From: an uncultured virus (IMG/VR IMGVR_UViG_3300029309_000002)
Taxonomy: Duplodnaviria; Heunggongvirae; Uroviricota; Caudoviricetes
Reading direction: 5' to 3' (one strand)
Length of the DNA stretch: 64,000 bases
IMG/VR virus record: IMGVR_UViG_3300029309_000002
In this document: piece by piece, positions 1 through 54,690 of the stretch
Position numbering within the stretch: position 1 is the first letter of the stretch
How the letters are laid out: every line of letters begins with the position of its first letter
Program-made: the position numbers and the translations under genes
Notes under the pieces: generated by a model
What the model was told of the DNA's origin: nothing
Seen by the model: the letters and a program-made list of their open reading frames with translations, nothing else
The model's database searches: none

Positions 1-1316
1 TTCATTATTCTACTTGCCTGTAAAGGATTTGTAATAGATTTAAATCTTTCAGTGACTTGGTTTATATTCCCTTCTCCAATTTTTTTATTTAATTCACGTA
101 TCCTATTTTGAATAAAAGATATTTCATTTTCAAGTGTAGGTAATTCATTTGCATATTCTTCTAAACCATATTTATTATTATACTCAGCTTGTTTAATTGA
201 TAGATCACTATTTAAATCATTTAATATTCTAGTATCATGACTAGTTCTCTTATCAATGTTTCTAAGCATCTCAGCATAATTTATTCTTTGATTCTCTAGT
301 CTACCTGATAAACCTAGTGATAACATATTAGGTCTTTTATAACCCATATCTAATTTCTCTGCTAAATATGTATTTTGTCTATCTTTTCCAAGATCCATTT
401 GAAATTCTTGTGCTAAGTATCTATTTGGATTTTGTGCATCACTTAAACCTCTAAACCATCCTATTGCTTTATCATCTATTAAATGTAGACCATCATGATG
501 AGCTGGTAATCTAGGGTTAGTAAAAAGTTGAGGCATAGCAAAAGAATAATTTAATGGAGTAAATCTGTTTGTACCCGGCATTCTAAGTGCTTGACCACTT
601 AAAATAGAATTATACTGATCGTACATATTACCACCTGTATTAACGGATCTGAATATAGGATATTTAAATTGACTTGGCATAAGCTCAGGTAATCTATATG
701 CCCCAAAATCTGCACCATCTGCTTCTAAACTTTTCCAATTAGAAGTAACTAAACCTTGATCATTAGTATTTACATCTACTTTTGTAAATCTAGGATTAGA
801 TGTTTGCATATCATAGTTTGCAAGACTTTCTAATTGTTTTAAATCAACCATATCATTTTGAATAAGATTAGGGTTGTTTTTTAAAACATTTGCTATTATA
901 AGCTGTTCACCTGTATTAAAGTTTTTAGTTAATACATTATCTAATTTTTTTAGTGGTAAATACCTATCATCTTTTGCAACCTTTTTTAAAAGTTTTTTAC
1001 TAAATGTAAGTGCACCACCAGATTGTGCTTTTGCCATAAAATCCTCTGGCTGTTCAAGCTCAGGTTGTCTTCTATAATCAAGTGTAATCTCTCCTCCCAT
1101 AGATATATTATCTGATGCAATTACATATCTATCATTACCAACTAATGCACTTACAGCATTTGGTGTGTCAGAGTGATTATAATATTGACCTATCTCTGAT
1201 GCAATCTCACCATTAGAATGACTTAAACCAATAAGATCACCTGGCTTAAGATCTGTTGCTGCAATAAGACCTTGACCTTCTATATTAGATTTTCCTATTT
1301 TATATGGCTTGTTCAT
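1..1316 (-). CDS. Large probable virion/ejected protein, 5' part only (runs off window), with N-terminal SET lysine-methyltransferase-like domain
   Basis: Not in the ORF track. ATG at 1316-1314 overlaps the upstream stop (TAATG). Hand translation of 1316-361 and 62-3 shows no stop. Begins MNKPYKIGKSNIEGQGLIAATDLKPGDLIG...YYNHSDTPNA...VIASDNISMGGEITLDY (SET motifs GxGxxA, NHSxxPN, ExTxDY), then KAQSGG. Confidence 0.8.
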   Translation of the reverse strand, partial: MNKPYKIGKSNIEGQGLIAATDLKPGDLIGLSHSNGEIASEIGQYYNHSDTPNAVSALVGNDRYVIASDNISMGGEITLDYRRQPELEQPEDFMAKAQSGGALTFSKKLLKKVAKDDRYLPLKKLDNVLTKNFNTGEQLIIANVLKNNPNLIQNDMVDLKQLESLANYDMQTSNPRFTKVDVNTNDQGLVTSNWKSLEADGADFGAYRLPELMPSQFKYPIFRSVNTGGNMYDQYNSILSGQALRMPGTNRFTPLNYSFAMPQLFTNPRLPAHHDGLHLIDDKAIGWFRGLSDAQNPNRYLAQEFQMDLGKDRQNTYLAEKLDMGYKRPNMLSLGLSGRLENQRINYAEMLRNIDKRTSHDTRILNDLNSDLSIKQAEYNNKYGLEEYANELPTLENEISFIQNRIRELNKKIGEGNINQVTERFKSITNPLQASRIM

Positions 1317-10984: not shown

Positions 10985-10986
10985 CT

Positions 10987-12545: not shown

Positions 12546-12547
12546 AA

Positions 12548-13069: not shown

Positions 13070-13114
13070 ATCTCTTACGTATATAATTTACAAAAAAATG
13101 AGGATAAATAAAAG

Positions 13115-14296
13115 TTATTCAGGAGAATATGTTAACTCACATATTTCACCCTTAGTTGGACTATGTATAGATAATACACCAGATCTTCTAGATCCTACAA
13201 ATTTATTATGGTAATGATAATAATCTGTTCTAGATAAACTTGGTAATATCTTTAACATAAATCCTGTATTTTCATGAGCTGTTATATATTCTATTTTTTT
13301 CTTATGATGATAATGTCCTGTATATAATGTTCTAAATAATGTCTTACCCCACTCTCTTGGATACTCCATAGAATATAACATTAAAGAATTCTTTGTATTT
13401 ACATCACCATGTTCAAATGCAAAAAAGTTATCTCCGTATACAAAGACTTTTCTCTCAAGATAAATTACATCCCAAAGTATGTTAGGATCATCAAAACATT
13501 TAGATAAACCATGTGCTAAATGAAATGAAGACAACCTATCATGATTACCTGGTATATATATAACTTGTAACTCATCACAAAATTGTTTTATATAGTTTAT
13601 ACTCCACTGTATAGCATCAAAAGCTTGTTTATATGCTTCTGTTGCTGTTTTGCAATTATCTAACATAGTACCACTGGTAGTAGTACCACTCCATGTATCC
13701 ATGTTAATAAGATCTCCTCCTACTACATAGAATATTTTTTCTAAATGATGTGCACTTGTTGCTCTATCAACTAAATCTTTTATAGTTTCTTCAAAATCTA
13801 AATCAATAGTTTCATTACCTTCTTTACCAAAATGTATGTCTTGTAATGACAAAACTCCAGCTGTTATTTCTTTCCCTGGAGTTTTTAATCTTTTTGTAGG
13901 TTTGAATTTCTTTGGTTTAAAACCTTTTAATAATTCTGCTACATTATCTATTTGATTATCTTTTATCTTTGTAACCATTGCAGATACACGCCAATGATCA
14001 CCCATTTGTTTATTCCAATAACTTGAAAGTTTCCACTGAGTTGTATCAATATTTAATATATCTATTATTTCTTCTGGTGACTTTGGTTCAGATGAACTTA
14101 TAGTTTCCATCTTTGCTTCACCTTTATCTAGATTTACTTCATAAGATGAAGAATTGTTTTCTTGTAATTCTCTTACCTTTACAAGATCTTTTAGAACTTC
14201 ATAGTCCTCTGCTGTTATACCTAATCTTTCTGCACAATATTCTGTTGTTTTTTTCCATTTAAATGATGCTTTAATTTTTTCTAATAATGAGTCCAT
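13115..14296 (-). CDS. Calcineurin-like metallophosphoesterase with N-terminal HTH-like segment
   Basis: Motifs DIHFG, VGGDLIN, GNHD, EHGD, GHYHH; N-terminal YCAERLGIT. Confidence 0.85.
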   Translation of the reverse strand: MDSLLEKIKASFKWKKTTEYCAERLGITAEDYEVLKDLVKVRELQENNSSSYEVNLDKGEAKMETISSSEPKSPEEIIDILNIDTTQWKLSSYWNKQMGDHWRVSAMVTKIKDNQIDNVAELLKGFKPKKFKPTKRLKTPGKEITAGVLSLQDIHFGKEGNETIDLDFEETIKDLVDRATSAHHLEKIFYVVGGDLINMDTWSGTTTSGTMLDNCKTATEAYKQAFDAIQWSINYIKQFCDELQVIYIPGNHDRLSSFHLAHGLSKCFDDPNILWDVIYLERKVFVYGDNFFAFEHGDVNTKNSLMLYSMEYPREWGKTLFRTLYTGHYHHKKKIEYITAHENTGFMLKILPSLSRTDYYHYHNKFVGSRRSGVLSIHSPTKGEICELTYSPE

Positions 14297-14973: not shown

Positions 14974-16128
14974 TTATACACATTTATCTCCTGCTGCTGA
15001 TTGTGGTGCACCCCAATGTGGCGCAGTTGTGCTATATTGTGCTGTAGGACCTGATCCAGAACCACATAATGCATACCAGTTACCATTAATCAATTCTGTA
15101 TTTCTACTTGGATTATAAGGAGACGTATAAGCTTTACAATTTACATCAAACTGAATTCCTGTTGAATTCCAAACCTGAGTACATCCTGTTCTAGCACCTG
15201 CTTGTGTTAATGATGCAGTACATGCTGTAGCTGTTGTATACAACTTATCTACACCACCCATTATAGCTAGTTGTACGGTATTACAACAATTATCTTGTAT
15301 ATCTTTTACTGCTGTTCTTAAATCATCTATTGTTGTCCATACATTATGTAATGAATCTGCTAAATTTGATACTGTTGGTTTTATTGTTTTTTTATAACCT
15401 GATCCAGCAACAGGTGTAGTAAGTAAAGGTTGATTAGATGTAGCAGATGCTAAATTAGAAGGCATTCCTGAAGCATTACGCAATTGTACAAATTGTTTAT
15501 CTAACTGTTGAACAACAACATCTATAGGTGTTAATACACCTGTTCGTACTACACCACTTGAAAATAATTTTGGATTAGGTTCACCCATTGGATTATTTTC
15601 TAATGCAGTTACTCTAGCAGATACTTGATTTATAGTGCTTGTATTTGTAGAAATTCCTGTGCTACTATCACAATCATTTAACATTAAATATTCTAATACA
15701 TCTTCAATACTTCCTTCTCCAGTTGTTGAAAAACTTGCAGGTGAATTTGGTAAATTTTGAAAACATGCTGGAATAGTCATTTTACATTTAAATACATCTG
15801 AACAAGCTAAAGCATCAGCAGACACAGGAGAACCACCTGTACCTTGATTAAGGATTATATTATCAATCATCAACTGTATTAGTTGTTGAAGAGTAGTTGC
15901 TGTTGGACCTACTAGATTACTCTGATCTACTAGAGTTATATCAAAAGCTAGGCCTCCTGCTATAGATTGTTGAAGCTGACACAACAAGTTTGCCATACTA
16001 GCAACTACTGTACTTATTGTATCACCATTACATATATTTACACATTCAATATCTGGACCTTGCCATATCACACAATTAGATGATATAGGATCACAGTGCT
16101 GAGGATTATTTGCGTTAGTTGGTATCAT
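14974..16128 (-). CDS. Putative fibre/structural protein with Cys-rich N-terminus and coiled coils
   Basis: 384 aa; SSNCVIWQGPDIEC N-terminal module; heptad segments (INQVSARVTALE, IDDLRTAVKDIQ); position in tail block. Confidence 0.5.
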   Translation of the reverse strand: MIPTNANNPQHCDPISSNCVIWQGPDIECVNICNGDTISTVVASMANLLCQLQQSIAGGLAFDITLVDQSNLVGPTATTLQQLIQLMIDNIILNQGTGGSPVSADALACSDVFKCKMTIPACFQNLPNSPASFSTTGEGSIEDVLEYLMLNDCDSSTGISTNTSTINQVSARVTALENNPMGEPNPKLFSSGVVRTGVLTPIDVVVQQLDKQFVQLRNASGMPSNLASATSNQPLLTTPVAGSGYKKTIKPTVSNLADSLHNVWTTIDDLRTAVKDIQDNCCNTVQLAIMGGVDKLYTTATACTASLTQAGARTGCTQVWNSTGIQFDVNCKAYTSPYNPSRNTELINGNWYALCGSGSGPTAQYSTTAPHWGAPQSAAGDKCV

Positions 16129-22222: not shown

Positions 22223-22768
22223 TTAACAATTTGAACAAGTTATTTTACTTAATTTTGATTTTGCATAAGTATAAAGTTCTAATCCAGCCCCAGGGCTTGC
22301 ACAATATTCAACTTTAGCTTTAGCAGCATCTATATATAATTTTATATCCATCATTTCATCTAACAATGCTTGCCTATCTCTAGATGGCTCACATGTTTCA
22401 ATATCAAGTTTACACAACTTATCATACCAAGTCTTCATAATATTTGTAATACGTAAATAGTTGTATTCTACAAATACTTTATTATGAGGGCTTACTTGAT
22501 ATCTTATAATATACAATCCATCTGGTAATACAGTTCTTTTAGTATTACAATCTGTAGTTTGTATACCTAATGAACATGATTCTAGTACTAAATCAAATCC
22601 TTCCTTTACTTTAATTAACGCAGGTTTGTTAAAACCAGGCGGAGTTATTAAAATTTCAGGACAATCTATCTCAAGATTTTTTGCATATTTACTAGTATCT
22701 TTTATAGCAAATACGTCTGGATTTGAAACATTTAATACTTCTAAGCTTAGTATATGTTTTGCTGCCAT
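22223..22768 (-). CDS. Hypothetical virion structural protein
   Basis: 181 aa; LPDGLYIIRY beta motif plus helical C-terminus; preceded by the late-promoter motif. Confidence 0.5.
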   Translation of the reverse strand: MAAKHILSLEVLNVSNPDVFAIKDTSKYAKNLEIDCPEILITPPGFNKPALIKVKEGFDLVLESCSLGIQTTDCNTKRTVLPDGLYIIRYQVSPHNKVFVEYNYLRITNIMKTWYDKLCKLDIETCEPSRDRQALLDEMMDIKLYIDAAKAKVEYCASPGAGLELYTYAKSKLSKITCSNC

Positions 22769-38717: not shown

Positions 38718-38990
38718 TTATTTTAAGTACATGTCTCTTAAGACAATACATTTTTCAAAATCATCTTGCTCTGCAAAATAATCTATAATTGCTAAAACTT
38801 GTTCTTTATCAGGTTTATCAGATAAGTCATGTGCCATAACCATACCTAAACCATCCTCATCCATAAAGTCTTCAAGTTTTAGTTTATTTGTTAAAAGAAG
38901 GAATGAGTTTAAGTTAGCTACGTGGACTAATTCATTTTCAGCTTGTAACTGTTCTAGTTCAGTCATTTTGTTAAACTCATCAAATTTCAT
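38718..38990 (-). CDS. Hypothetical protein with C-terminal UVR-like helical motif (start re-assigned to MKFDEF)
   Basis: YFAEQDDFEKCIVLRD; TAACTTTG promoter element at 39011-39018 lies within the longer track ORF. Confidence 0.55.
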   Translation of the reverse strand: MKFDEFNKMTELEQLQAENELVHVANLNSFLLLTNKLKLEDFMDEDGLGMVMAHDLSDKPDKEQVLAIIDYFAEQDDFEKCIVLRDMYLK

Positions 38991-39046
38991 TTTTATTACT
39001 TTTTTAGTTGCAAAGTTATACAAAAAAATATAATCCATGCAAATAT

Positions 39047-42000
39047 TTAATTATTATTTTTTTCTAAAGGATCAAAATATGTTGGAAATATTTGATTCAT
39101 TAAACCAGTTTTTAAATAATTAGGATCATTAGGATCTAAAAAATTAGGATTAACTTGTTCAATAACATTAGTTCCTACACCACCAGCACCTATACCAATT
39201 TGATATGGTGTTTTAAGGAAACCACTTTCTTTAAATGGTGTATACTTAGGTTTATTAAACGTACCCAAATTAAATTGAGGATTAAATGTTGTACCTGTAG
39301 ATATACTAGAGAAAGGACCAGTAGGAGGTGCCTTTTTTAATGAATGTAAATTAGTTAAATCATCTAAGTTATTATATAAAAGATTAGTTTTATTTTGCCA
39401 TCCTGGTGTATTTGAAATACCTTTTGTAAGGAACTTTGCTGATTTATTAGTATTAAGAGCCCCTTTTAAAAGTTTAGCACCTTTACCAACCGGTACAAAA
39501 CTTACTACATCTAAACCTAACATACCAAATGTTCCTGGAGTAGGATTTTCTTTAAATCTCTCATATGCTTCATATTTATCCCCATCTACACCTAACACAC
39601 CTTTAGCAGTATCTAATGCCCAATCAACAGTTCCATATAAAATATCACCAAAAGCAAGATTAAACATATTCTTACCTCCAGATGGTCCTAAATGAAAAGC
39701 ATCATATTTTAAATAATTACCTAACTTATCCCAATTTTTAGTTATAGCACTATTTTCAAATCTAGTTTTTGGTCTATTTTCATATATATTAAAATCTGGA
39801 GAATCAATATATGTTTTACCATCACTGTTACGAAAAGCCATCCTTGCATCTTTCATATAGTAAGGTACATCTCCTTCAGCAAAAGTACTATAATCAACAG
39901 TACTTTCCCCAGTTCCTAATAAACCTGCTGGTGTAGTATATGTTGTAGGTGCATTAGTTATATTGTAAAGAGCTGCAGTATTTTGCATACCTGTTCTTAT
40001 TGCTTCATAAAGTTCATTATCTCCACCATCAGGATTATTTGCTATATATTCATCAAAAGCTTTTCTTTCTTTACTATATTGATTACCAACCATCTGATCT
40101 AAATAGTTAGTTTCAAATGCATTCATTGCATTAGAATTATAACGTTTTTCCCAGTCTTTAAATGCTTTTGTACCTCTATTAAATTCTTTACTTTCAAAAA
40201 AGTTTACCAATTTTTTTTCATTTAAAAGTTGTTGAAAAGCTTCACTATATTCTGGATTCATTATATCCCTCATAAGATTATATTGGGGTATATTTTGCAT
40301 ATAACTTAATTCACCTATGTTTCCAGCTTTTTTAACATCTCTTAAAAATCTGCTTACAAGTTGGTTAGGAACTGTACCTTCTTCACCAAAGTAATCAAAT
40401 ATAGCTTTCTCATAATCTTCTTCATTCTTAATATCTTTGTTAGTAAAATATGAAGTAGGTATGTTTTGTGCTAGTTTAAGAATGTTATCAAATTCTTCTT
40501 TAGTCCTAAATATATTTACAGGATCATCATACTCTTCTATACCAAATGGTTTACCTTTATACATAAATTGTGGTACATTAGTTTGACCAAATTTAGTATC
40601 ATACTGTTGAAAAGGCATTGAGTAACCTGCTTCTTGTGCTGCACGTGCTATGTTAAACATTTGACCTTGAGACATATTTTCAATATCAATACCTTCTCTT
40701 TTCAATGCATCTATATATGTCTTAGATACGTCATTTCTTAAATCTTCAGAAAAAGAAGATTGTAACATACCTTGATAATTTGAAAAAAGACTTAATGCTT
40801 CATTACTATACTGACCACCATCTTGATATGTAGTTATACCTTTATCTTTAAAGTATTGATCTTCCCAATCATAGTTCTGTTTAAATAGATTTTCTATACT
40901 ATTAGGAACAAAAGGACTATACCAACTACTATACTTTTCTTCCATTATATTATCTCTTTCTTTTTGTATTCTTTCTTGCTTTTCTATTTCTTTCTTTTTT
41001 ATTGTTTGATCAACCCATGGTTGTAAAAATATTTTTAAGTATTGTTTATTTCTTGATAATTCAGCACCACCTTCTTGTTCTCCTCTTATATATTCTGCAA
41101 GTGCTAAATCAGTATTATCTGTTAAAATACCTTCTGCAAACTTTGGATACTTACTTAACCTTCCAAGATTATAAGTAAAGTCAGCTAACATTACTTTCTT
41201 TTGATCTGTAAGATTATCATAAAAACCTTCACCATAATTAGCATCTACAAATATTTTTGTTTTTCTATGTGCATTATTAAGTGATTTAGTTAATTGTTCA
41301 TTAGCTTCAGGCATTGACATTCCTTCTTTATAAAGATCAAATATATCTTCCCCTTTTGTTCCATATCCTATTGTTGCTTGACTTTCATAAGTACCATCTT
41401 TATTTTGATGATAATATGGATAAAACTTACCATCTTCATATCTTTTATAATATCCGCTACCATCAGGCTTCATTACAGCAGAATTTTTAGCTTTCATAAA
41501 CTCCATTCCAGCTTCTTCATCCTTAATAAACTTAATTAACATTTGATTATAATTAGGTTCTCCTCCATCTTCATATTTAGATAATGAAGTTCTTACAGCT
41601 CCTCCATCTTCATAAGTTCTATCAGGAGTGTCATCTAAAGCTAACCCTGGAGTTTGACCCCCATATTCTTTTTTGCCTTTAAGTATCTCATCTGGTGTAA
41701 AAATACCACGAGGGGTTCTTACAGGTACATTTTCTTTACCAAAAATTAAATTAGTCTGAGTCAGTCCTGGTACTTGTAATGAATTAGGATTTACAATTAA
41801 TCCTTGATATTTTTCTGGATCAAGTCCTTTTTTAAATGTAGACATGCCTAAGTCAGTATTAAATACAAAAGGATTGGTTATACCAAACTGAGGAAAATTA
41901 ACATTTTTAGTATCAAAAGCACTTATTCTATCATATAATCCTAAATCTGTTTCATTAAATCCTGGTGTTACTACAGGCATTTTATTTGCACCATCTGTAT

Positions 42001-45000
42001 TAAAAAAGACGGTACCACCTGGTCCTGTTACATTAGCATCCAATAAATCAAACTTAACTGTAAAAGGCTTTGCACGCATATTACCATATCTTTCTAGAGT
42101 TACTTTTGGATCATTACCAGAAAACAATATATCATATCCTTCAGGAAGTGTATAACCACCTCTTCTACCAGATCCTCCTGGAGAAGTCCCTAAAAACATT
42201 GCTAACTCTCTATCATCATCTGGATCATATCCATATTTTTTTGCTTGGCTTCTTATAACCTCATTATTTCTTAAACCATCATGTATATTAACTGTATGAT
42301 AACCTGTATTTCTAATATCAAATTGATTTTCTAAATCTGCTCTATCTATTATTTTTCTAGGACCTTTAAGTAAAGTTGCAGGACTAGTCTTATCTCTAGC
42401 AATAAGATTAGGAAACGGTGTTTTAAGATCCACTAAATCTGTATATTCTGTTCCATCAGGTTTAAACCATGCTAACTGACCATCAGATTTATAATCTAGT
42501 TTTAAATCAAACTTACTAATTTCAGGAAATAAATTTTTATTGTCAGATTGAAGTCCTCTATAGAAGTTATCCCAATTTTCACCCATCTCTTCACCTAGCC
42601 AAAATCTAGTATTACCATCCATTAATTTGACTGGTTCATTTAACATTTTACCTTCTCCTAGGAATGTTTTAATTCTATCTCCCATCCCTGTAGCAAATAA
42701 ATCACCTTTTTCTAAATTACTTCTAGGTATAATAAGATTAGAAAACATAGGTGTATCTGTTCTTTGATACTGGTTTATAAGACTACCAATTTTATGTTGC
42801 ACATCACCATAATTTCTAGTTGGAATAAGTAGACTACTTTTAGGAGTAACATCAAATGGATCAAATTTATATCTTAATCTACCTAATGGATTTGTAATGC
42901 TTTTAACTATACCACCTCCTTGATTCATTGGTAATTCTCCACCACTCTGTTTTAAAGTTCTTAAATATTTTCTGTAATCATTTATAGGACCAAGATTTTC
43001 TAAATTACTTTGATTTATTATAAAATCTGGAACTTCAAATTCTGTAAATCTAGTTGCTGCATCAAATATACTTGCTTTACCATAATCCTTAGATTTATAA
43101 TATTTACTAAGAAGTGAGTTATCTAAATCAATTTTATATACATTTGTTGGTCCTAAACCACTTCTCATCTCATCATATCTAAAGACATCAAATGGGTCAG
43201 CTGAATAATATCCAAATTTTGTACCACGTCCAGGTTGTATAGTATTAAGCGGTCCTTCTCCATATCTAAATAATGTTGTTGTCCCATCATCTCCTAATTT
43301 ATTAATAAAACTTTGTACATTCTTAAATTCTACACCAGGTAATCCTGGTCCTCCAAAATTTCCTAAATCTGTTTCATAATCAAAACGTCTTTTTGCACGG
43401 TTTTCAGATATAATTTTAACATTATCTAAAAAATTAATTTTACTAAATTTCACATCATCATTTAACAGTGCATTATTAATAAGAAGTTGTGCTTTATCAG
43501 GTTCATATTCTATTAGGTTTTTAATGTTTTTATCAGTATTAAGTTTTAATTTTTTTGCAGAAATTGGATTAGCATCAGCTATCAATTTTAGTTGTTGAAA
43601 CATATCATCTCCACTAATCTTAGGTACAGCTTTCCTACTACCTTTTTTTATCATACTTTTAAGAACTCCTCCAAACTGTTGACTTGGTAATGGTCCATAA
43701 GTATCATATCCATATAGGATTTCTCCTATTGGTCTATTGGTATCTGTTCTAGGAACTCCAGTACCAAAAAATCTATCTATAAATGTATCTCCAAAATTTG
43801 TTTGATAACCTGACCATTGAGTACCACTAGCAATATTTACTTTCATATTAGTTTCATCAGCTAATCTTTTACCAGCATCACTCTTTCTACATACACCCAT
43901 ATAACATGTAATACCAGAAGCATCATCAAAATTTTCATTAATTATTTCAGCAAATGTATCTGTAACACCAGGTGTTGGGTCATAACCAAAATGATCTCTT
44001 TCTTGTTCACCATACATTATTGGTCCAACTTTACTTGTACCATGTTGCATTATAATAATATCACCAGTAGGGCTTAAGTTTTTTATATCTTGAAAATATT
44101 TATTTGTTGCATCAACAGAAGTTATGTATTTTTGTTTTTGATCATCTAGTTCTGATTTTTTTATTTCATTTAATATATAGTTTCTATGATCTTCATTCTC
44201 AAATAGTGCATCATCTAATAATTTAAATGCTCCTTTATTAACGTTATAGTAATAGTCTTTATCTGAATATTTTAATGGTGATAATGTTTCCATTAACTCT
44301 TTTTCTTCTTTTTCTAATCTTTTAAGCTTATTTTCTAATTCAATAATTTCTTTAGATTCTGGATCATAGTCAACTTCCTCATAACCCTCTAAACCTTTTC
44401 TTCTATTCCATAATTCTTGACTTATTGGGTATATTTGATCTTGTAACTCTTTTCTTTTTTCTTTTGTTTGTTTTAAATACGAATTTTCTTCATTTTTATC
44501 ATAAAGAGTTTGATAAGCATCAGTATAAGCTGTAGCAGGTACTGCTCTTGCAATCCAATTACCAGCTCCATATCTCTCGTTTAGCTCAGGAGTCATTCTT
44601 TCTAGGTCACTTGAAAAGAAACCTGATGGATCTCTAGGATCATAATAAACTATTGCTTGATATTGCGCTTGACCTCCAGGAACACCTCTGCTAGAAGTAT
44701 AAGCTACATCTGGATTTAACATAAATCCTATGTCATCCATTTCACCAACATAATTCTTTTTTTCTCCACCTGCTTGATACTTAACTCCTGCTGATCCGTC
44801 TTTGATATAATTTTCTAATATTTTTCTATATGGACCATCTTTTGGAAATCCTTTTGCGTCATAGTTTGCCAATATTTTTTCTACATATTGTTTAGGATAC
44901 GAAAATATTTCTTTTTGATATAGAATAAGATCAGCTTGAGTAGCTTCTACCATTCCCTTTTTATCATATCCGCCTTTATATATTCTTTGATCATCAAATA

Positions 45001-46117
45001 AATTATATGCTGGATCCTTTGCTTGATCCATAGTAATATCATCCAATAAGCTAGGATTTTCATTTATTCTTTGGCTTCTATTTTTTACAATATTACCAGA
45101 AGCGTCTTTAAGACCTTCCATATAATAATTAAACTCTGGAGATGTGCTATGCACATAAGGTGATTCAAATGTAGACCTAAGATTTCTTTGCATATCATTA
45201 CGGAGATTAGGAACAAAATCTCTAAAACCTAATTTGTATGCTGGATTAAGATGATCAATACCCTGAAGATTTAAACCAGTTAACCAGTCATCAGTAAGTT
45301 TTTTTACTTGACCAGATAATAGATCTTTCTCCTCCTTGTAGAGGTTATATTTGTCAGAATTAAAATTACCACTTGGAGTTGACTCATTATAACTATACTT
45401 AGTGCCTGGAGTATTCTTTAATTCTTCTAGTTTATTTATTTGCTTATTTAGCTTAAATAATTCCTTATTAAAATTTACCTCTAATCCAATACCCCTAGCG
45501 TTACTAGCTAATTGCATATCCCCCGTCAATATTTTTGTGCTTGGAGGATATACGAATTGTCTAGGACTATAAAAATATATATCATTAGGAGCAGTAGATC
45601 TAGGCATAGCATTATACCTTATAGCATCTGCCATAGGTAATGCAAATGTATTTGTTACATGGTCCCAGTTACCCATAAAGTGCCCAGGTACAGGTTTACC
45701 CGTTCCTGTAAAATGTACACTCTTTCTTCCAGTACCCTGTGCAGGAGATATCATAAGTCCCCTATCAAATACTAGATTATTAAAACGATTAGCTTCTTTT
45801 CTTACCAGATCTCCCGTTAAACCAATTGTTCCAAACTCACCTACAGGAGCAAAACTAGGTACTATATTTTGTCTTGCCTTTTCACTATAGAAGGCAGGAA
45901 AAGGTGAATCTACATTACCTGTCTTTATATAACTTCTCCAATCATCTAAACTTAATGAAGGATTTGTACCTACCTTAATAGTTTTCATAGGACCTAATAT
46001 ACTAGGTGGCGTAGGTGTAGAAAATATACTAGGTGCAATTTTAGTTAACCTATTTCTTAAAGCTGTTGTAAGTCCACGTTGTGCTTTTGGTAATTTCTTT
46101 TTGAGTTTTCTTGCCAT
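39047..46117 (-). CDS. Multidomain probable virion-delivered polyprotein: clan CD-like protease, ART-like domains, T4-type lysozyme and pre-toxin-like helix, separated by x-[QE]-x-GG motifs
   Basis: 2356 aa; IIIMQHG/CYMGVC; LFRYGEG..GYYSAD..EFEVP; DEEAG..TIGYG..LADFTYNLG; motifs YQAGG, QQFGG, KQSGG, NQGGG, KEYGG, YEDGG x2, YQDGG; preceded by the late-promoter 16-mer. Confidence 0.7.
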   Translation of the reverse strand: MARKLKKKLPKAQRGLTTALRNRLTKIAPSIFSTPTPPSILGPMKTIKVGTNPSLSLDDWRSYIKTGNVDSPFPAFYSEKARQNIVPSFAPVGEFGTIGLTGDLVRKEANRFNNLVFDRGLMISPAQGTGRKSVHFTGTGKPVPGHFMGNWDHVTNTFALPMADAIRYNAMPRSTAPNDIYFYSPRQFVYPPSTKILTGDMQLASNARGIGLEVNFNKELFKLNKQINKLEELKNTPGTKYSYNESTPSGNFNSDKYNLYKEEKDLLSGQVKKLTDDWLTGLNLQGIDHLNPAYKLGFRDFVPNLRNDMQRNLRSTFESPYVHSTSPEFNYYMEGLKDASGNIVKNRSQRINENPSLLDDITMDQAKDPAYNLFDDQRIYKGGYDKKGMVEATQADLILYQKEIFSYPKQYVEKILANYDAKGFPKDGPYRKILENYIKDGSAGVKYQAGGEKKNYVGEMDDIGFMLNPDVAYTSSRGVPGGQAQYQAIVYYDPRDPSGFFSSDLERMTPELNERYGAGNWIARAVPATAYTDAYQTLYDKNEENSYLKQTKEKRKELQDQIYPISQELWNRRKGLEGYEEVDYDPESKEIIELENKLKRLEKEEKELMETLSPLKYSDKDYYYNVNKGAFKLLDDALFENEDHRNYILNEIKKSELDDQKQKYITSVDATNKYFQDIKNLSPTGDIIIMQHGTSKVGPIMYGEQERDHFGYDPTPGVTDTFAEIINENFDDASGITCYMGVCRKSDAGKRLADETNMKVNIASGTQWSGYQTNFGDTFIDRFFGTGVPRTDTNRPIGEILYGYDTYGPLPSQQFGGVLKSMIKKGSRKAVPKISGDDMFQQLKLIADANPISAKKLKLNTDKNIKNLIEYEPDKAQLLINNALLNDDVKFSKINFLDNVKIISENRAKRRFDYETDLGNFGGPGLPGVEFKNVQSFINKLGDDGTTTLFRYGEGPLNTIQPGRGTKFGYYSADPFDVFRYDEMRSGLGPTNVYKIDLDNSLLSKYYKSKDYGKASIFDAATRFTEFEVPDFIINQSNLENLGPINDYRKYLRTLKQSGGELPMNQGGGIVKSITNPLGRLRYKFDPFDVTPKSSLLIPTRNYGDVQHKIGSLINQYQRTDTPMFSNLIIPRSNLEKGDLFATGMGDRIKTFLGEGKMLNEPVKLMDGNTRFWLGEEMGENWDNFYRGLQSDNKNLFPEISKFDLKLDYKSDGQLAWFKPDGTEYTDLVDLKTPFPNLIARDKTSPATLLKGPRKIIDRADLENQFDIRNTGYHTVNIHDGLRNNEVIRSQAKKYGYDPDDDRELAMFLGTSPGGSGRRGGYTLPEGYDILFSGNDPKVTLERYGNMRAKPFTVKFDLLDANVTGPGGTVFFNTDGANKMPVVTPGFNETDLGLYDRISAFDTKNVNFPQFGITNPFVFNTDLGMSTFKKGLDPEKYQGLIVNPNSLQVPGLTQTNLIFGKENVPVRTPRGIFTPDEILKGKKEYGGQTPGLALDDTPDRTYEDGGAVRTSLSKYEDGGEPNYNQMLIKFIKDEEAGMEFMKAKNSAVMKPDGSGYYKRYEDGKFYPYYHQNKDGTYESQATIGYGTKGEDIFDLYKEGMSMPEANEQLTKSLNNAHRKTKIFVDANYGEGFYDNLTDQKKVMLADFTYNLGRLSKYPKFAEGILTDNTDLALAEYIRGEQEGGAELSRNKQYLKIFLQPWVDQTIKKKEIEKQERIQKERDNIMEEKYSSWYSPFVPNSIENLFKQNYDWEDQYFKDKGITTYQDGGQYSNEALSLFSNYQGMLQSSFSEDLRNDVSKTYIDALKREGIDIENMSQGQMFNIARAAQEAGYSMPFQQYDTKFGQTNVPQFMYKGKPFGIEEYDDPVNIFRTKEEFDNILKLAQNIPTSYFTNKDIKNEEDYEKAIFDYFGEEGTVPNQLVSRFLRDVKKAGNIGELSYMQNIPQYNLMRDIMNPEYSEAFQQLLNEKKLVNFFESKEFNRGTKAFKDWEKRYNSNAMNAFETNYLDQMVGNQYSKERKAFDEYIANNPDGGDNELYEAIRTGMQNTAALYNITNAPTTYTTPAGLLGTGESTVDYSTFAEGDVPYYMKDARMAFRNSDGKTYIDSPDFNIYENRPKTRFENSAITKNWDKLGNYLKYDAFHLGPSGGKNMFNLAFGDILYGTVDWALDTAKGVLGVDGDKYEAYERFKENPTPGTFGMLGLDVVSFVPVGKGAKLLKGALNTNKSAKFLTKGISNTPGWQNKTNLLYNNLDDLTNLHSLKKAPPTGPFSSISTGTTFNPQFNLGTFNKPKYTPFKESGFLKTPYQIGIGAGGVGTNVIEQVNPNFLDPNDPNYLKTGLMNQIFPTYFDPLEKNNN

Positions 46118-46134
46118 AATTAATTAGCTGATAC

Positions 46135-46150
46135 TATAATATACAAAATT
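46135..46150 (-). promoter_or_regulatory. Candidate phage late promoter AATTTTGTATATTATA
   Basis: Identical to 16145-16160; 17 nt upstream of the ATG at 46117. Confidence 0.55.
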
Positions 46151-46339
46151 ACTAAAAATAATCCTAAGAAAACCCCGTACACTTAAGCACATACCCAAAC
46201 ATAATAAAAAAAGTTGTATACATTGCGTTTTAGTTGGGTCCTACTCTTTAGGCTCCCCTCTTAATTTCTGGCCTGTATGTCCCCCGGATGTACAGTGCTA
46301 CACAAATAAAATAATTTATTAACTAAAAAAATTTTAAAA

Positions 46340-46696
46340 ATGGAGAATTTAGAAACACTTCACTTCAAATCAGTCAATCAATCTAAGAAAGGTGCTATCT
46401 TCACAGAGAAACCTGCTACAGCTGCACAAGTCAAAGCTGCTAAAGCACGCTGGGACAATAGGACCAAAAATAAGCCTAATGGCAGTCTTAAACTGGGCTC
46501 TGCCACAGTTAAAGCCTACACAGCTACACCAAGTTTTGGCAAGCAATACTTTGTAGCTGGTGACTTTAGCAAGGTCAAGAAAGCAATACCTGTCGGCACT
46601 GCTGTTGACCTTGTTGTCACAGACAAGCCTGTAGTGAACAACACTACAAAACAAGTAATCAAGAACTTGTTCTGGGCTTACGCACCAGGCAAGTAA
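46340..46696 (+). CDS. Small basic hypothetical protein, first gene of the plus-strand block
   Basis: 118 aa, Lys/Ala-rich; A-rich leader; visibly more C-rich codons than neighbours; followed by a hairpin. Confidence 0.7.
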   Translation: MENLETLHFKSVNQSKKGAIFTEKPATAAQVKAAKARWDNRTKNKPNGSLKLGSATVKAYTATPSFGKQYFVAGDFSKVKKAIPVGTAVDLVVTDKPVVNNTTKQVIKNLFWAYAPGK

Positions 46697-46703
46697 TCTT
46701 GTT

Positions 46704-46740
46704 GACAAACTCTCTGGTAAAACAGGGAGTTTTGTCCTTT
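46704..46740 (+). terminator. Hairpin, probable terminator
   Basis: GACAAACTCTCTG-GTAAAA-CAGGGAGTTTTGTC directly after the stop at 46696; weak U tract. Confidence 0.5.
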
Positions 46741-46836
46741 GTCAATCACTATCATGAATATTGCTAGTGTAAATTGCGTATTGCTACAAAAAAAATGTGT
46801 TGTGTGTGCATAATTGTGTGTGCCACATCACATTTA

Positions 46837-46860
46837 CCACATTTCTCCACTTTATTCCAC
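46837..46860. repeat. Three CCAC boxes at exact 10-bp spacing (GTGG-N6-GTGG-N6-GTGG on the minus strand)
   Basis: CCAC at 46837, 46847 and 46857, with an extra CCAC at 46823. Confidence 0.55.
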
Positions 46861-47025
46861 TGTTGGAGTATTGTAGCACATAATAAATAACATAGCTATC
46901 ATGACTTGTTTGTTGATGATTGTATCTTACAAGGGTACATAATGACTCTGGTTATGATGGCTATTACTATTTGTCTCTTCTCTCTCTATAGAATGAGCAT
47001 ATTAGTATCCGGAATATTGGAAATA

Positions 47026-47336
47026 GCTATAGGCACCTTGACTTTGACAGATCAAAAGAATGTAATGTGACGGAGAGAATGTATACGCATATTACATTAG
47101 TTCCCTATTGGAACTGTTGAAATAGTACTGAGAGATGTTGTGCCTATAGTCTATGTTGGTCACAAAGAGAGTTAGCTAGTGCACATAGCTACCATCCTGA
47201 TATAATTATAAGCAGTGAAATACAGAAATAAGGCTAGGATCTGTACTCTCTTTTTTAATAGCTATAATAAGAGTAATTGCAGAGGTTAATGATGCCACAT
47301 CTTAACGTGGGCCATTGTAACTACTCTTGTTATAGT
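47026..47336 (+). ncRNA. Cluster of three multi-stem structured RNA candidates in the early leader
   Basis: Closing stems CTATAGGCAC/GTGCCTATAG (47027-47149), AAAGAGAGT/ACTCTCTTT (47164-47253) and CTATAATAAGAGTA/TACTCTTGTTATAG (47262-47335), each enclosing internal hairpins; G-U pairs favour the plus strand. Confidence 0.45.
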
Positions 47337-47370
47337 CACAGAGTAATTAATTATAAATACACACAATAAA

Positions 47371-47923: not shown

Positions 47924-48541
47924 ATGAAAGCAAAAATATATAGAAAAATAATAGAGAGCATTACTAGATTACAAAGATACTTAATAAATAAAATTGATGG
48001 TGTAGATCCTCAAAGAGGTATAGTACTTGTTAATGATAAGAGATTATTCAAAGGTAATAAGTGTCATATTGGTACATGGCAGAATAGTAAGTATGATAAA
48101 GGTATTACTTGGAATAATATCATTTATAATAACTATATACAACAGATGTATAGTATACTTGCTGATAAAACCTATATGATTACATATATCAATGTTAACC
48201 GTGCTAAGTGGGTTCATCAAAAGTTAGATCTTATTGACTTTATGGTTAATGGTAATAAGTCTAACTGTGAATCATTAACAGGTAGCACTGTTATATTTAA
48301 TGATGTTAAACTCAAAGTTTCATTTAGTATATACCAATGGACTGAGTTTGAATTACGTTCTGAAGTTGATGGTCTTAAGTTTATTAACAACTGGGATCAG
48401 ATAGAACTTATTCGTAAATATAAGACAGCAACAAAAGATATATATAAAAGATTTAAGGAAACAAGTCCTGAAGTCATTGCAAGTTATTGCAAAAGAGAAA
48501 ATAATCAAATAGTAATGAATTTAAATAAATTAATAAAATGA
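47924..48541 (+). CDS. Hypothetical protein (start re-assigned to MKAKIY)
   Basis: The track start at 47846 lies within the hairpin; an in-frame ATG at 47924 follows an AT-rich leader. Confidence 0.6.
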   Translation: MKAKIYRKIIESITRLQRYLINKIDGVDPQRGIVLVNDKRLFKGNKCHIGTWQNSKYDKGITWNNIIYNNYIQQMYSILADKTYMITYINVNRAKWVHQKLDLIDFMVNGNKSNCESLTGSTVIFNDVKLKVSFSIYQWTEFELRSEVDGLKFINNWDQIELIRKYKTATKDIYKRFKETSPEVIASYCKRENNQIVMNLNKLIK

Positions 48542-49080
48542 AAAATGAATTAACTGCAAAACTTATTGAGCTACATGTATTAGATAATCTAACAAGGGTA
48601 GTTACAGAAAATAACATGGACAAAAGATTTATATCTAAAGTTCTGGCTGAACATCTTTCTGCTGAAGTAGCTGAGACTATTATACAAATGGCTGCATTTG
48701 GACATAGCATACCTATTATTAATAAAGGTGATGTTGTATATGCATCTATTGATAAAGAATGGATCAGGAAAGATCTTGGTGATCAGGATGTTCTTTTAGA
48801 TAAAGGAAAAGCATTTGAAGTTAGTGGATCAATATATTATATTGGTATTGTAACAGATGATGCTACATATGGTGACTATAGTCCTTATTCAGTTGAAAAG
48901 AAAATTACTTTCAATGGTGTAAATGATAATCTAAAAGATAAAAAGGTAACGGAAACTATATCTATATTGAATATTATTCCGGCTGACCCAGAGTATCTTA
49001 TAAAGGTGCTTCCTGATAGTACATTCCACAAAATAGTAGGTGGAATGCATGATATTAAAGATGTAGAAATACAACTTTAG
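48538..49080 (+). CDS. Hypothetical protein
   Basis: 180 aa, overlapping the upstream stop. Confidence 0.65.
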   Translation: MKNELTAKLIELHVLDNLTRVVTENNMDKRFISKVLAEHLSAEVAETIIQMAAFGHSIPIINKGDVVYASIDKEWIRKDLGDQDVLLDKGKAFEVSGSIYYIGIVTDDATYGDYSPYSVEKKITFNGVNDNLKDKKVTETISILNIIPADPEYLIKVLPDSTFHKIVGGMHDIKDVEIQL

Positions 49081-49145
49081 CTATAATACTACTATAAATC
49101 TTAAATACTCTGACTCAAAACTGTTAAACCTGTAGATAATATTAT

Positions 49146-49153
49146 TACTTTTG
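49146..49153 (+). promoter_or_regulatory. Bacteroidota-type -7 promoter element TACTTTTG
   Basis: Matches TAnnTTTG; ATG follows 4 nt later. Confidence 0.45.
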
Positions 49154-49157
49154 TAAT

Positions 49158-49418
49158 ATGTTATTACAACTTAAAACTGGTTTTACAATAGAGATTCCTA
49201 CAGAAGTCTACTTAGATATGACTGATGAGGAACTTCAAGAGTTAGAGTGTTTAGGGCCTTCTCAACTCATGGAAATCAACAATCCATTCTATAAATCTTA
49301 CGCAGGTAAAACAAAACTAGACAAGCCTGTCTCAAAAGAGGAGACAAAGGCATTATATGATGTACCTGATCAAGAAAAGTTAGATGAGTATTTTGACCAT
49401 GAGAAAGAAGATTACTAA
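49158..49418 (+). CDS. Acidic hypothetical protein
   Basis: 86 aa intact ORF. Confidence 0.65.
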   Translation: MLLQLKTGFTIEIPTEVYLDMTDEELQELECLGPSQLMEINNPFYKSYAGKTKLDKPVSKEETKALYDVPDQEKLDEYFDHEKEDY

Positions 49419-49452
49419 TTAAATATTTTAATAACACTTTAAATTAATTCAC

Positions 49453-50178
49453 ATGAATTTCAAACAACAACCAGTTGTCATCTGTAAAGATGACCAAAAG
49501 AACGTAATACGTGTATCTAAAAACAATCCTTTATACGCACATGTAAGATTAACACAAGAAAGATCTTGGATATCTGCTAATGGATGGTTCACAGTAAGAG
49601 AGATAAGTACATTAATACAGGGTGAGACTGCTAAACTTAAAGCTTCTGGCATAGGTAGAAAGTCTAAGTTACCAGGTAATATCTATATTAAAGAGCAACT
49701 TACTCCATTTAGTAAGAATGATCCTAAGAGAGATCTTAAGTTTGCCGGTAAGACAGGTGTTACATGTAAAGCTGCTGATCCTGAAACAGGAGAAATAGTA
49801 GATATATATAGAAAAACTTTTTATGATGCTACAGGTACTAATGAAGATATCTTGATAGAGCACATAAATGGTGATGAGATTAGAAAAGCAAATAATGCTG
49901 ACTCTGCATCTATTAATAAGATGATTGAGAAAGCAGTTGCTGAGAAAGAAGAGTCACAAGAAGAAGTTAATCCAAATCAAAAAGATCTATTTGAAGCAAT
50001 AGAGGAAGCTAAGGCTGAGGAGATTGAGAAAGCTGAAGAAGATGCATTAGATTCAGATGAGGATGAAGCTGATGATGTGACTGTTGAAGATTCTATAGAT
50101 GAAGTTGAGGTAGAGGTAGAAGAGGAAGTTGAAGTATTGGAGGAAGAAGAAGTAGAAAACAACCCGTTTAGTTTATAG
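49453..50178 (+). CDS. Hypothetical protein with long acidic tail, possible ssDNA-binding protein
   Basis: 241 aa; basic beta-rich N-terminal domain, D/E-rich tail ending NPFSL; followed by a terminator. Confidence 0.5.
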   Translation: MNFKQQPVVICKDDQKNVIRVSKNNPLYAHVRLTQERSWISANGWFTVREISTLIQGETAKLKASGIGRKSKLPGNIYIKEQLTPFSKNDPKRDLKFAGKTGVTCKAADPETGEIVDIYRKTFYDATGTNEDILIEHINGDEIRKANNADSASINKMIEKAVAEKEESQEEVNPNQKDLFEAIEEAKAEEIEKAEEDALDSDEDEADDVTVEDSIDEVEVEVEEEVEVLEEEEVENNPFSL

Positions 50179-50199
50179 ACACTTCTAAACGGAGAGGTT

Positions 50200-50252
50200 G
50201 GAGAGTTCTAGCATGTTACTTTAGGGAATGCAGAGCTCTCCTTCCTTTTTTT
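50200..50252 (+). terminator. Rho-independent terminator
   Basis: GGAGAGTTCT(A)GCAT...ATGCAGAGCTCTCC stem followed by a T7 tract. Confidence 0.7.
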
Positions 50253-50287
50253 ATACCTAATTTTTAACCTTTAATACATATAATAAA

Positions 50288-50794
50288 ATGCAATTACAAG
50301 AACAACTACTAAAACTAAATCAACAAAAACTAATAAACAGATATGATTATCTAGGTATATTAGGAACTTATCAAACAATCAGCAAGGATGTTTACCAACC
50401 TATTGTTTATAATAACTTTAACCAAACCCAACACTTCTTATTTAAAAGAGTGCTACATGGCCTTAATGTCTACACACCAGAAGAAATAAGTAGCATGCAC
50501 TCATTAAAACGTAAGAGAATTAAAAGAGTATGGAGACGTGGTCAAAGAGTTATAAATGCATGGAAACAGATCATATGCAACAAGAGAGCAAATCAAATAT
50601 TCAAGGAATACTTTTCTGAGAGCCCTCTTGGTAAAGCTATTATAGCTAGCAATGATCATTATGTTGATGATAAGTTTGTCAATAGAATGACATTAAAAGA
50701 ACTTGATATTAAGTATGAAGACTTAGTAATCAAGTTTATTCAAGAGGGATTATTACCTCAGAATTTTTTATCTTTGAAGTATGTTAAAAGCTAA
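50288..50794 (+). CDS. Hypothetical basic protein
   Basis: 168 aa intact ORF. Confidence 0.65.
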   Translation: MQLQEQLLKLNQQKLINRYDYLGILGTYQTISKDVYQPIVYNNFNQTQHFLFKRVLHGLNVYTPEEISSMHSLKRKRIKRVWRRGQRVINAWKQIICNKRANQIFKEYFSESPLGKAIIASNDHYVDDKFVNRMTLKELDIKYEDLVIKFIQEGLLPQNFLSLKYVKS

Positions 50795-54090: not shown

Positions 54091-54690
54091 ATGTGGGAAT
54101 TGATGCAGGAAATCCTGATTGACAAACTTACACCAAATCAGTTATTATTACTATATGCAATTGATAATAAACTGACTATACAAACTATAAATCCACATTT
54201 AGAAATAAAAGGATTGGTAGAAAATAAATATGTAGAATATGAACCAAAGAAATCTATTACTATTACAAAAGCTGGTAGAGATATCATAGAGAAGTATGAT
54301 GCATATTTTAAGAAAGCCAAACGCAAGACTAATGTACACCTTATGGGTAAAAAGTATGTTGATCTTGTTGAGGAATATAGAGAAATCTTTCCTGCTAAAA
54401 AATTACCAAGCGGTAAGCCAGCTAGAGTTAATGTCAAGACATTGATAAATAATTTTAGATGGTTCTTTGAAAACTATGATTACACATGGGATGAAGTTAT
54501 TGCTGCTACAAATAGATATGTAAAAGAGTATAGACAAAATGATTATTTGTATATGCAGACTAGTCAATATTTTATATCTAAAGCAAATCAGTCTAAGGTT
54601 AAGCAATCACAACTTGCTGATTACTGTGACATGATTAGAGAAGGAGTAGAGGAAGAAGATAATAACCATTTTAGTGAAAATGTAGTATGA
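54091..54690 (+). CDS. Winged-helix protein, possible replication initiator/helicase loader
   Basis: GLVENKYV..ITITKAGR wHTH-like; FREIFP..YMQTSQYFI C-terminal region; coupled to the helicase gene. Confidence 0.5.
   Translation: MWELMQEILIDKLTPNQLLLLYAIDNKLTIQTINPHLEIKGLVENKYVEYEPKKSITITKAGRDIIEKYDAYFKKAKRKTNVHLMGKKYVDLVEEYREIFPAKKLPSGKPARVNVKTLINNFRWFFENYDYTWDEVIAATNRYVKEYRQNDYLYMQTSQYFISKANQSKVKQSQLADYCDMIREGVEEEDNNHFSENVV

Follow-up and report, generated by a model that had tools for sequence, protein, structure and literature searches.

Exchangeable cassettes joined by a Gly-Gly seam motif in a putative virion-cargo polyprotein of a marine crAss-like phage

The window analyzed here, a stretch of 64,000 nucleotides from an uncultured virus (IMG/VR record IMGVR_UViG_3300029309_000002), carries on its minus strand an uninterrupted reading frame of 2356 amino acids (267 kDa; 39047..46117) in which different modules are joined by a short Gly-Gly peptide. 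Whole modules are lost, gained and reordered at this peptide among orthologues, and the same peptide recurs in cargo proteins of cultured phages of the order Crassvirales. We propose, with no better than even confidence, that the protein is a polyvalent cargo of the virion and is cut in trans at its Gly-Gly seams.

The genes for Crass_capsid, two CrAss_Ring proteins, a P22-like portal and the terminase all lie on the minus strand of the window, and by these genes the source phage is classed as crAss-like. The metagenomes containing the window DNA are marine, and membership in the order suggests a Bacteroidota host. The genomes used for comparison were G002 (115 kb), the nearest record, with a capsid 93% identical, and its relative G004.

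The Gly-Gly motif in the polyprotein

The pattern [QE]xGG occurs nine times in the 2356 residues, among 19 Gly-Gly pairs; shuffled versions of the protein contain 1.71 on average, and none of 20,000 shuffles reaches nine. The other 51 listed open reading frames (ORFs) of the window, a set that excludes the open-ended ORF 3..1316, hold four such sites in 17,659 residues. An earlier note on this DNA had staked its proposal of a segmented effector polyprotein on the motif being rarer in other phage proteins, as these counts bear out, and the eight sites it listed (447, 813, 1056, 1065, 1483, 1502, 1515 and 1764), together with a variant KAQRG at 11-15, are all present. The ninth site, EQEGG at 1680, was passed over there. 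Because this site falls within the lysozyme segment and two orthologues lack it, we do not count it as a linker.

The motif scan places the seams, all on the minus strand, at YQAGG (aa 447-451; 44765..44779), QQFGG (aa 813-817; 43667..43681), a triple seam KEYGG...YEDGG...YEDGG with a short conserved spacer (aa 1483-1519; 41561..41671) and YQDGG (aa 1764-1768; 40814..40828). A double seam, KQSGG-ELPM-NQGGG (aa 1056-1069; 42911..42952), is the window's version of a form, GGxLPKAQxG, in which the joining peptide [FYMKA]-[QEAK]-x-G-G is often doubled in this family; the fuller motif in relatives reads [KY]xxGG-x-L-x-K-A-Q-x-G. The residues preceding the Gly-Gly pair are constrained (an aromatic residue, Met or Lys, then Gln, Glu, Ala or Lys), and LPKAQ, which is nearly fixed in copies selected by this pattern, recurs in unselected copies. 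The third codon positions of the glycines are free: those of 439 motif pairs, counted after the pattern-selected copies had been dropped, match those of 669 other Gly-Gly pairs (p 0.16 and 0.42), so that the constraint acts on the peptide. A DNA-level recombination site is rejected by the same free synonymous positions.

The basic stretches that the earlier note had seen after several motifs are found at some sites and missing at others. Net charges of +3 to +10 follow the motifs at 11, 813, 1056 and 1065, and net charges of -1 to -5 follow those at 447, 1483-1515 and 1764.

The motif is not unique to this gene, since a second one in the post-muzzle cargo slot, which extends beyond the window (3..1316, minus strand), encodes a SET domain followed directly by KAQSGG and then a further cassette. 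In both the window and G002 (10013-13927) that gene begins with the SET domain (Pfam E 4e-6), which together with the seam would make a phage-borne methyltransferase cassette; G004 carries a different, shorter gene in that slot.

Exchange of cassettes at the motif

Relatives were collected by scans with the lysozyme segment (12 loci) and with the neighboring PhoH (best 80 of 487). The same slot holds 16 distinct proteins, 8 of them complete (1234-2737 aa), and the segments between the seams, here called cassettes S1 to S5 followed by a tail S6, differ among them in content and order. In L002, a relative of S1 stands second, behind a different first cassette, and is joined directly to the KEYGG seam (1483) without S2 to S4; L007 lacks S1 and begins with S2; L001 lacks S3; and S2 occupies position 1, 2 or 3 in different arrays. 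The basic leader ending in KAQRG (aa 1-15; 46073..46117) is kept while the cassette next to it changes. S5 is present in all 8 complete orthologues, 6 of which were retrieved using S5 itself, and S6 does not vary among the closest relatives. Some relatives, such as L023, L048 and L091, have the same neighbors around an empty slot.

The breakpoints of similarity coincide with the motif. Of 121 internal ends of high-scoring segment pairs (HSPs; at least 50% identity over at least 80 aa, each end over 40 aa away from either terminus), 45 have a motif no farther than 25 aa away in both proteins, where the null mean is 2.1 and the maximum in 2000 draws is 10, and 83 have one in either protein (null 29.3). 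The HSP rows are not independent and those of the window are counted twice, which tells against our interpretation of these counts, and the motif expression used missed QQFGG at 813, an error that works against the enrichment. In run X4, a single contig connects the leader with the 447 seam at a depth of 2.8, as in L007; three of the four long joints were set aside (sides shorter than 30 letters), and the fourth is this one contig.

The seams persist over larger distances. Residues 452-1487 gave 30 matches among 1.84 billion proteins, and remote homologues (30-60% identity) retain the motif at the cassette borders: 7 of 8 S3 rows end in K-[KQ]-[YS]-G-G, the eighth (P0005) not being a homologue, all 7 S4b rows end in xxGG, and all 5 S4a rows start at a motif. 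A tblastn search of GenBank phages with the ORF and the protein in the C1 position of G002 returned no match. Judged by the free third codon positions, conservation acts on protein and not on DNA. Among the orthologues, whole segments are dropped, added or placed in a new order at the motif, as the earlier note had foreseen in speaking of exchangeable cassettes.

Scanning viral contigs with a DNA pattern for GGxLPKAQxG gave 119 stretches, corresponding to 103 distinct proteins. Of the 80 loci with complete flanks, the muzzle gene is close by in 38 and PhoH in 2, and none of five marker genes is nearby in 31. Cutting 87 proteins at their motifs gave 410 segments in 185 clusters, 53 of them with more than one member, and the order of segments varies; clusters c10, c14 and c19 are found in the PhoH slot and also outside it, in post-muzzle cargo genes. 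A conserved module of about 30 residues, ending like L-I-A-A-G-A-D-I-E-I-L, follows the last motif in many of the proteins (for example cluster c3 in L106, L109, L136 and L137) and was also seen in a protein of phage Lbo-JY46.

Content of the cassettes

No Pfam family rose above the cut-off for the whole 2356-aa ORF, and the Pfam scan of its segments gave no family match for S1 (aa 16-446; 44780..46072), in which R-x-[ST]-x-H-[FW] is conserved at 131-136. Sequence searches of the PDB with profiles of S2, S3 and S4b, the C1-position protein of G002 and gp40 of phage phi4:1 found nothing significant. In the wider family, 138 of 173 chosen cassette representatives were scanned, and 11 had Pfam matches: lysozyme, LysM with YkuD or SLT, kinase, SET, PG-binding, DUF5754 and two that are likely spurious.

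Cassette S2 (aa 452-812; 43682..44764), which the earlier note had called a clan CD-like protease, adopts that fold in its model. An AlphaFold2 model from 17 sequences (predicted local distance difference test score, pLDDT, 72; only 41 for a single-sequence fold) shows a caspase-hemoglobinase (caspase/CHAT) fold with a helical insert, and its top six structural matches are Tce1 (Z 9.4), SAVED-CHAT (9.0), a metacaspase (8.4), two legumains (7.9 and 7.6) and GPI transamidase (7.5). The Z values are moderate, and the fold class of Tce1 is not stated in the search output. Root-mean-square deviations (VIA) were 3.8 over 161 aligned residues for SAVED-CHAT, 3.3 over 152 for the metacaspase and 3.6 over 157 for legumain. 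Foldseek gave no match to the model at E < 0.001, and the Atlas leads DUF4347/Stv stayed under 0.9. The alignment conserves QHG and CYxGxC, and His692-Gly693 and Cys738 and Cys743 lie after core strands, as in clan CD. We regard S2 as a caspase-fold protease candidate.

MARTX toxins release their effectors by an obligatory, cis-acting clan CD protease, and they carry terminal MARTX/RTX repeats and leave the cell by type I secretion. The earlier note had described the window protein as a phage counterpart of these toxins, and a comparable self-processing, in which S2 cuts its own polyprotein at the seams, would fit the caspase fold, the conserved His-Gly and Cys, and a structural match to the RtxA protease domain (Z 6.8). 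We nevertheless rate it the least probable of all the explanations weighed here. S2 is missing from 7 of the 8 complete syntenic orthologues, which keep their seams, and is therefore not the general processing enzyme; it shifts among positions; and gp45 of phage crAss001 has seams and no such domain. The likeness to MARTX extends to a multi-effector array, exchangeable cassettes and a clan CD domain, but the window protein is borne by a phage and would be aimed at bacteria, its protease cassette is optional, and neither the ORF nor its segments gave a Pfam match to MARTX/RTX repeats. With S2 in only 1 of the 8 complete orthologues, the analogy as first drawn fails.

Cassette S3 (aa 818-1055; 42953..43666) shows an R-S-E pattern (LFRYG at 949, YSADP at 971, FTEFE at 1024), which we take to be typical of ADP-ribosyltransferases (ARTs). 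Its Atlas lead is ART-PolyVal at 0.85; at the level of a lead, the pattern and this match agree with the first of the two ART-like segments proposed earlier. ART-PolyVal appears in the relative P0026 at E 3e-6, below the cut-off. The second ART-like segment did not hold up as a unit. Residues 1070-1482 comprise two domains with no motif between them: S4a (about aa 1070-1250; 42368..42910), presumably ParB/sulfiredoxin-like by its DGxxR/DGNTRF motif, and S4b (about aa 1251-1482; 41672..42367), which is possibly ART-like. Comparisons by hhalign among S1, S3, S4b and an ART-PolyVal stretch of P0026 gave probabilities below 4%. Cassette S5 (aa 1520-1763; 40829..41560) is phage lysozyme-like, with Pfam matches at E 0.004 in the window and 0.001 in L002 that uphold the original assignment. 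The tail S6 (aa 1769-2356; 39050..40813) contains a weakly hydrophobic stretch at 2199-2217 and no clear membrane helix (best 19-residue hydropathy 1.24), and the membrane character attributed to it is not supported.

The motif in cargo proteins of cultured phages

The motif is concentrated in a particular class of cargo genes. With gene classes set by the analyst, its density per 1000 aa in G002 and G004 is 4.2 and 4.0 in the polyprotein and 2.8 and 3.1 in the three post-muzzle genes, compared with 0.24 and 0 in the next three genes (the C2 position and the RNA polymerase, RNAP, module) and 0.39 and 0.22 in the others. The same distribution holds in cultured phages. In phi4:1, gp40 has 7 sites and gp41 has 2, both being annotated in the record as virion proteins by tandem mass spectrometry, and 18 other proteins have 0-2 each. 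In crAss001, a loose pattern finds 9 sites in the 842 aa of gp45, none in gp46 or gp49, 2 in the 2341 aa of gp47 and 3 in the muzzle. By this distribution the motif characterizes C1-type cargo proteins throughout the Crassvirales, a point that the earlier note had missed. It does not serve as a general packing tag, since C2 and RNAP enter the virion with few or no motifs.

The window protein is linked to this class through its relatives. The N-terminal domain of phi4:1 gp40 is common to 30 of 121 proteins searched, including P0013, P0014 and P0019, in which relatives of S4b and S2 are present. The polyprotein lacks that domain, and so its packaging is argued from the shared cassettes and the motif. 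Through these chains of homology to virion proteins found by mass spectrometry, the polyprotein is likely virion cargo. It is distinct from the C1 gene, a post-muzzle gene homologous to gp45: it occupies the PhoH slot, and no gp45 match to it was found among the 121 proteins.

The N-termini of post-muzzle proteins (cluster c0; aa 12-87 of phi4:1 gp40) share a domain of about 75 residues with no Pfam match, which is a candidate capsid-loading domain. PP438436.1 (L224 and L225), deposited as a Leptolyngbya phage, has a crAss-like gene order and the best capsid match to the window, and its three post-muzzle proteins contain the seam motif; its host label may deserve a check.

One conceivable role for the Gly-Gly peptide is that of a flexible hinge or folding boundary, which lets the chain unfold and refold stepwise in the narrow tail and is recognized by no partner. 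Gly-Gly is flexible, and cargo must partly unfold to cross the tail (PMC10172136). Such a hinge would hardly need the constrained positions before the Gly-Gly pair or the recurrent LPKAQ, and the same pattern extends from gut to marine phages. RNAP also must unfold and does so without the motif. We consider a hinge improbable.

Proposed processing at the seams

We instead favor proteolysis. The polyprotein would be a late-made, virion-packaged polyvalent protein of a marine crAss-like phage, encoded by an optional second cargo locus whose cassettes come from the pool that the post-muzzle, C1-type genes also use. Its precursor would be loaded into the prohead by way of the basic leader and flanks, and a protease acting in trans, for which the zincin domain of the virion-RNAP polyprotein is a candidate, would cut at the Gly-Gly seams. 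The resulting modules of 28-67 kDa would pass the tail separately and act in the periplasm or cytoplasm during the first minutes of infection, each cassette supplying one enzyme module (a wall-cutting lysozyme, an ART, a caspase-fold protease and others). Because each cassette has its own seam, recombination at the seams would yield working new arrays.

Data that bear on this proposal exist for gp45 of crAss001, which is resolved as a tail-bound piece of residues 214-245 and a portal-bound piece of residues 425-552, with 12 copies of each (PMC10172136). The tail piece lies between the motifs at 206 and 260, and the portal piece ends before the motif at 559 (FAYGG). The available text of PMC10172136 mentions neither cleavage nor a protease, and the four gp45 peptides that it names from mass spectrometry span no motif. 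We reanalyzed 13 peak lists from crAss001 gel bands (Shkoporov et al., PMC6235969) against 27 crAss001 proteins at 75 ppm with shuffled decoys. The portal (11 vs 2.5) and muzzle (16 vs 3.0) were found at full size, and the proteins followed in size order: gp47 with gp50, gp49 with gp44, portal, gp26, gp22, gp25, gp23, capsid, gp36 and gp29. gp45 never exceeded chance in any of the 13 bands (best z 0.3), at a copy number equal to the portal's (12) and with 16 Arg-ending peptides to the portal's 13. This absence lends weak support to cutting, because the motif-free gp46 was not clearly found either (best z 2.0) and only selected visible bands, whose sizes were mapped by the analyst, had been cut.

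Besides these two limits of the band data, several observations weigh against cleavage or against packaging. In the model of Bayfield et al., gp45 passes through the portal as a single chain (PMC10172136), and the portal-bound piece starts inside a motif and is modeled from A425 through NAFGG, which means that this site is not cut after its Gly-Gly; it may be a structural site, with HDFGG as the equivalent in cr106. No dedicated maturation protease was found, and a gp33-like protein was rejected for want of an invariant catalytic set in 5 sequences. The zincin is the remaining candidate, and the case for it consists of an HExxH match in the virion-RNAP protein, of which G002 and G004 each encode a DFDID version with this site, and of a remark in 10.1101/2020.03.07.982082. 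Among 77 complete carriers, chosen for having at least 2 motifs, 36 have a motif in the last 30 residues, where a cut would free hardly anything. No seam separates S4a from S4b, and the lack of the gp40 N-terminal domain leaves the polyprotein's own packing route unexplained. Three RNA runs contain 0.06, 0.00 and 0.00 of the words, next to nothing of this gene, and so have no bearing on its expression.

Several of these points suit the main rival to cleavage, an uncut docking handle: the motif would bind a scaffold, the portal or the tail barrel, or a component of ejection, and in this way load or order C1-type cargo, which is then ejected whole. In the same 77 carriers the first 30 residues have a motif in 23 cases and the last 30 in 36, with 9.9 expected, and motifs are often doubled; the AFGG of portal-bound gp45 is intact; no maturation protease was found; and the virion RNAP of phage N4 is packaged unprocessed (PMC5512222). 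A single handle would suffice, yet the motif stands at nearly every seam, C2 and RNAP are cargo with few or no motifs, and full-length gp45 was not found in the published bands, though that last point is weak. Overall we find a docking handle rather unlikely, if clearly a stronger contender than the hinge.

Genomic setting

The polyprotein gene is the first of a leftward late block, upstream of a 106-aa gene and PhoH. A promoter-like 16-mer, TAATTTTGTATATTAT, whose predicted role would make the polyprotein a late product, lies upstream of it at 46136..46151 (minus strand) and also upstream of the orthologues in G002 and G004. An exact copy stands 5' of ORF 14974..16128, and three further sites with 2 mismatches lie before ORF 22223..22768, before the opposite-strand ORF 54091..54690, which is outside the structural block, and inside a gene, giving 5 sites with at most 2 mismatches against 0.82 expected. 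The 16-mer is promoter-like and precedes several late genes, and it is not strictly confined to structural genes.

The gene's position apart from the cargo block, close to PhoH and to a gene matching an endolysin family, would also suit a protein that is not cargo and acts late inside the infected cell, in lysis or in defense against competitors, and the slot can be empty between the same neighbors. Against such a role, the polyprotein shares cassettes with post-muzzle cargo genes (c10, c14 and c19) and its motif with virion proteins found by mass spectrometry, and an ART or protease acting late would gain little from fusion to a lysozyme. We judge it very improbable, more so than the hinge.

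The 106-aa gene (38718-39038, minus strand) has a C-terminal FEKC motif and precedes PhoH in 33 loci, with or without the polyprotein. Its presence where the slot is empty rules it out as an immunity partner. A polymorphic toxin of the MuF or pre-toxin type, in which a constant N-terminal carrier is combined with a variable C-terminal toxin and an adjacent immunity gene, was rejected too: in this family the variation falls in the N-terminal and middle parts, the C-terminal part stays constant, and the small downstream gene also occurs at empty slots.

Upstream of the polyprotein, 46150-47370 is a strand-switch region, mostly non-coding with one 118-aa ORF, where the cumulative GC skew turns; many divergent contigs accumulate near 46300, and the region is a possible origin or genome end. 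The muzzle-position protein (1316-10984, minus strand) has 3222 aa, with two inserted VWA domains and Cys-rich stretches, and gp44 of crAss001 only 1371 aa. The terminase ORF of G002 (92500-93918) has 472 aa from the first Met vs 729 aa in the window, possibly by a frameshift, masked bases or an assembly error. G002 also encodes an 821-aa protein (48227-50692, plus strand) with a type IX secretion C-terminal sorting domain (E 3e-14), which indicates a Bacteroidota host.

Relation to known systems

Phage polyvalent proteins are large proteins in which unrelated enzymes (ART, ParB-like, lysozyme, kinase, peptidase) are linked and for which packaging, injection and processing into units have been predicted (Iyer et al. 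2017, PMC5512222). The window protein has the architectural features of this class: at least two unrelated predicted enzymatic domains (caspase fold, lysozyme-like, ART-like), a phage with portal and terminase, and a place among late genes, with capsid, portal, terminase and ring genes on the same strand. Its packaging and injection are predicted from the homology chains to phi4:1 virion proteins. Of the domain pool described for the class (ART-PolyVal, DdrB-ParB, MPTase, LPDs), ART-PolyVal appears as the Atlas lead of S3, and the hhalign comparison with P0026 was negative. In its family the architecture varies across the array and not only at the C-terminus. Processing is assigned in PMC5512222 to a zincin in cis, whereas the window protein was not matched to one. 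The available text of that paper mentions neither crAss-like phages nor caspases and describes no recurrent linker; that of PMC9503650 does not mention crAss, and that of PMC7886860 contains no polyprotein or protease.

A close parallel is crassvirus C1 (crAss001 gp45, PMC10172136; phi4:1 gp40 and gp41), from the same phage order, with the same seam motif and basic termini; gp40 and gp41 share domains with members of the window protein's family. C1, however, is conserved, follows the muzzle gene and has portal- and tail-binding parts (PMC10172136), whereas the window gene forms an optional second locus that encodes variable enzymes, and no C1 homology was detected in it. Among eukaryotic viruses, the core polyproteins pp220 and pp62 of African swine fever virus are cut at Gly-Gly-X by pS273R (PMC10308890). 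They resemble the window protein as virion-internal polyproteins with Gly-Gly seams, if it is indeed packaged, but yield fixed structural products by a known protease, whereas the products of the window family vary and their cleavage is a prediction. Head ejection proteins of T4 and SPN3US carry capsid targeting propeptides (PMC7411985), short N-terminal tags that end in a recurrent motif; the tagged proteins enter the cell, and an ADP-ribosyltransferase is among them. Their motifs have Glu as the last residue, and a prohead protease frees N-terminal propeptides; the window seams are internal, and no prohead protease was found.

No publication describing the seam motif was found in the literature searched, which did not cover subscription papers. 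New at the window locus are the second, PhoH-linked slot, the measured swap points and the reanalysis of the crAss001 bands.

Implications

Crassviruses are the most abundant gut phages, and how podophages select the proteins inside their particles and deliver them is still debated. With a short peptide marking C1-type cargo in gut and ocean alike, exact positions can be tested in cultured phages (motifs 206, 260, 329, 370 and 559 of crAss001 gp45, and 81, 324/333, 515 and 548 of phi4:1 gp40). The seam motif also provides a rule for splitting many unannotated giant phage proteins into domains, and the 410 segments in 185 clusters, with few Pfam matches, form a large pool of candidate anti-host and wall-cutting enzymes. 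More tentatively than for the window protein itself, we suggest that Crassvirales, including crAss001, may mature their C1-type cargo by Gly-Gly-directed proteolysis, and that aquatic lineages may have made of it a two-locus plug-in effector system. If so, the one-chain picture of gp45 would be wrong, and its tail-bound and portal-bound pieces would be separate peptides.

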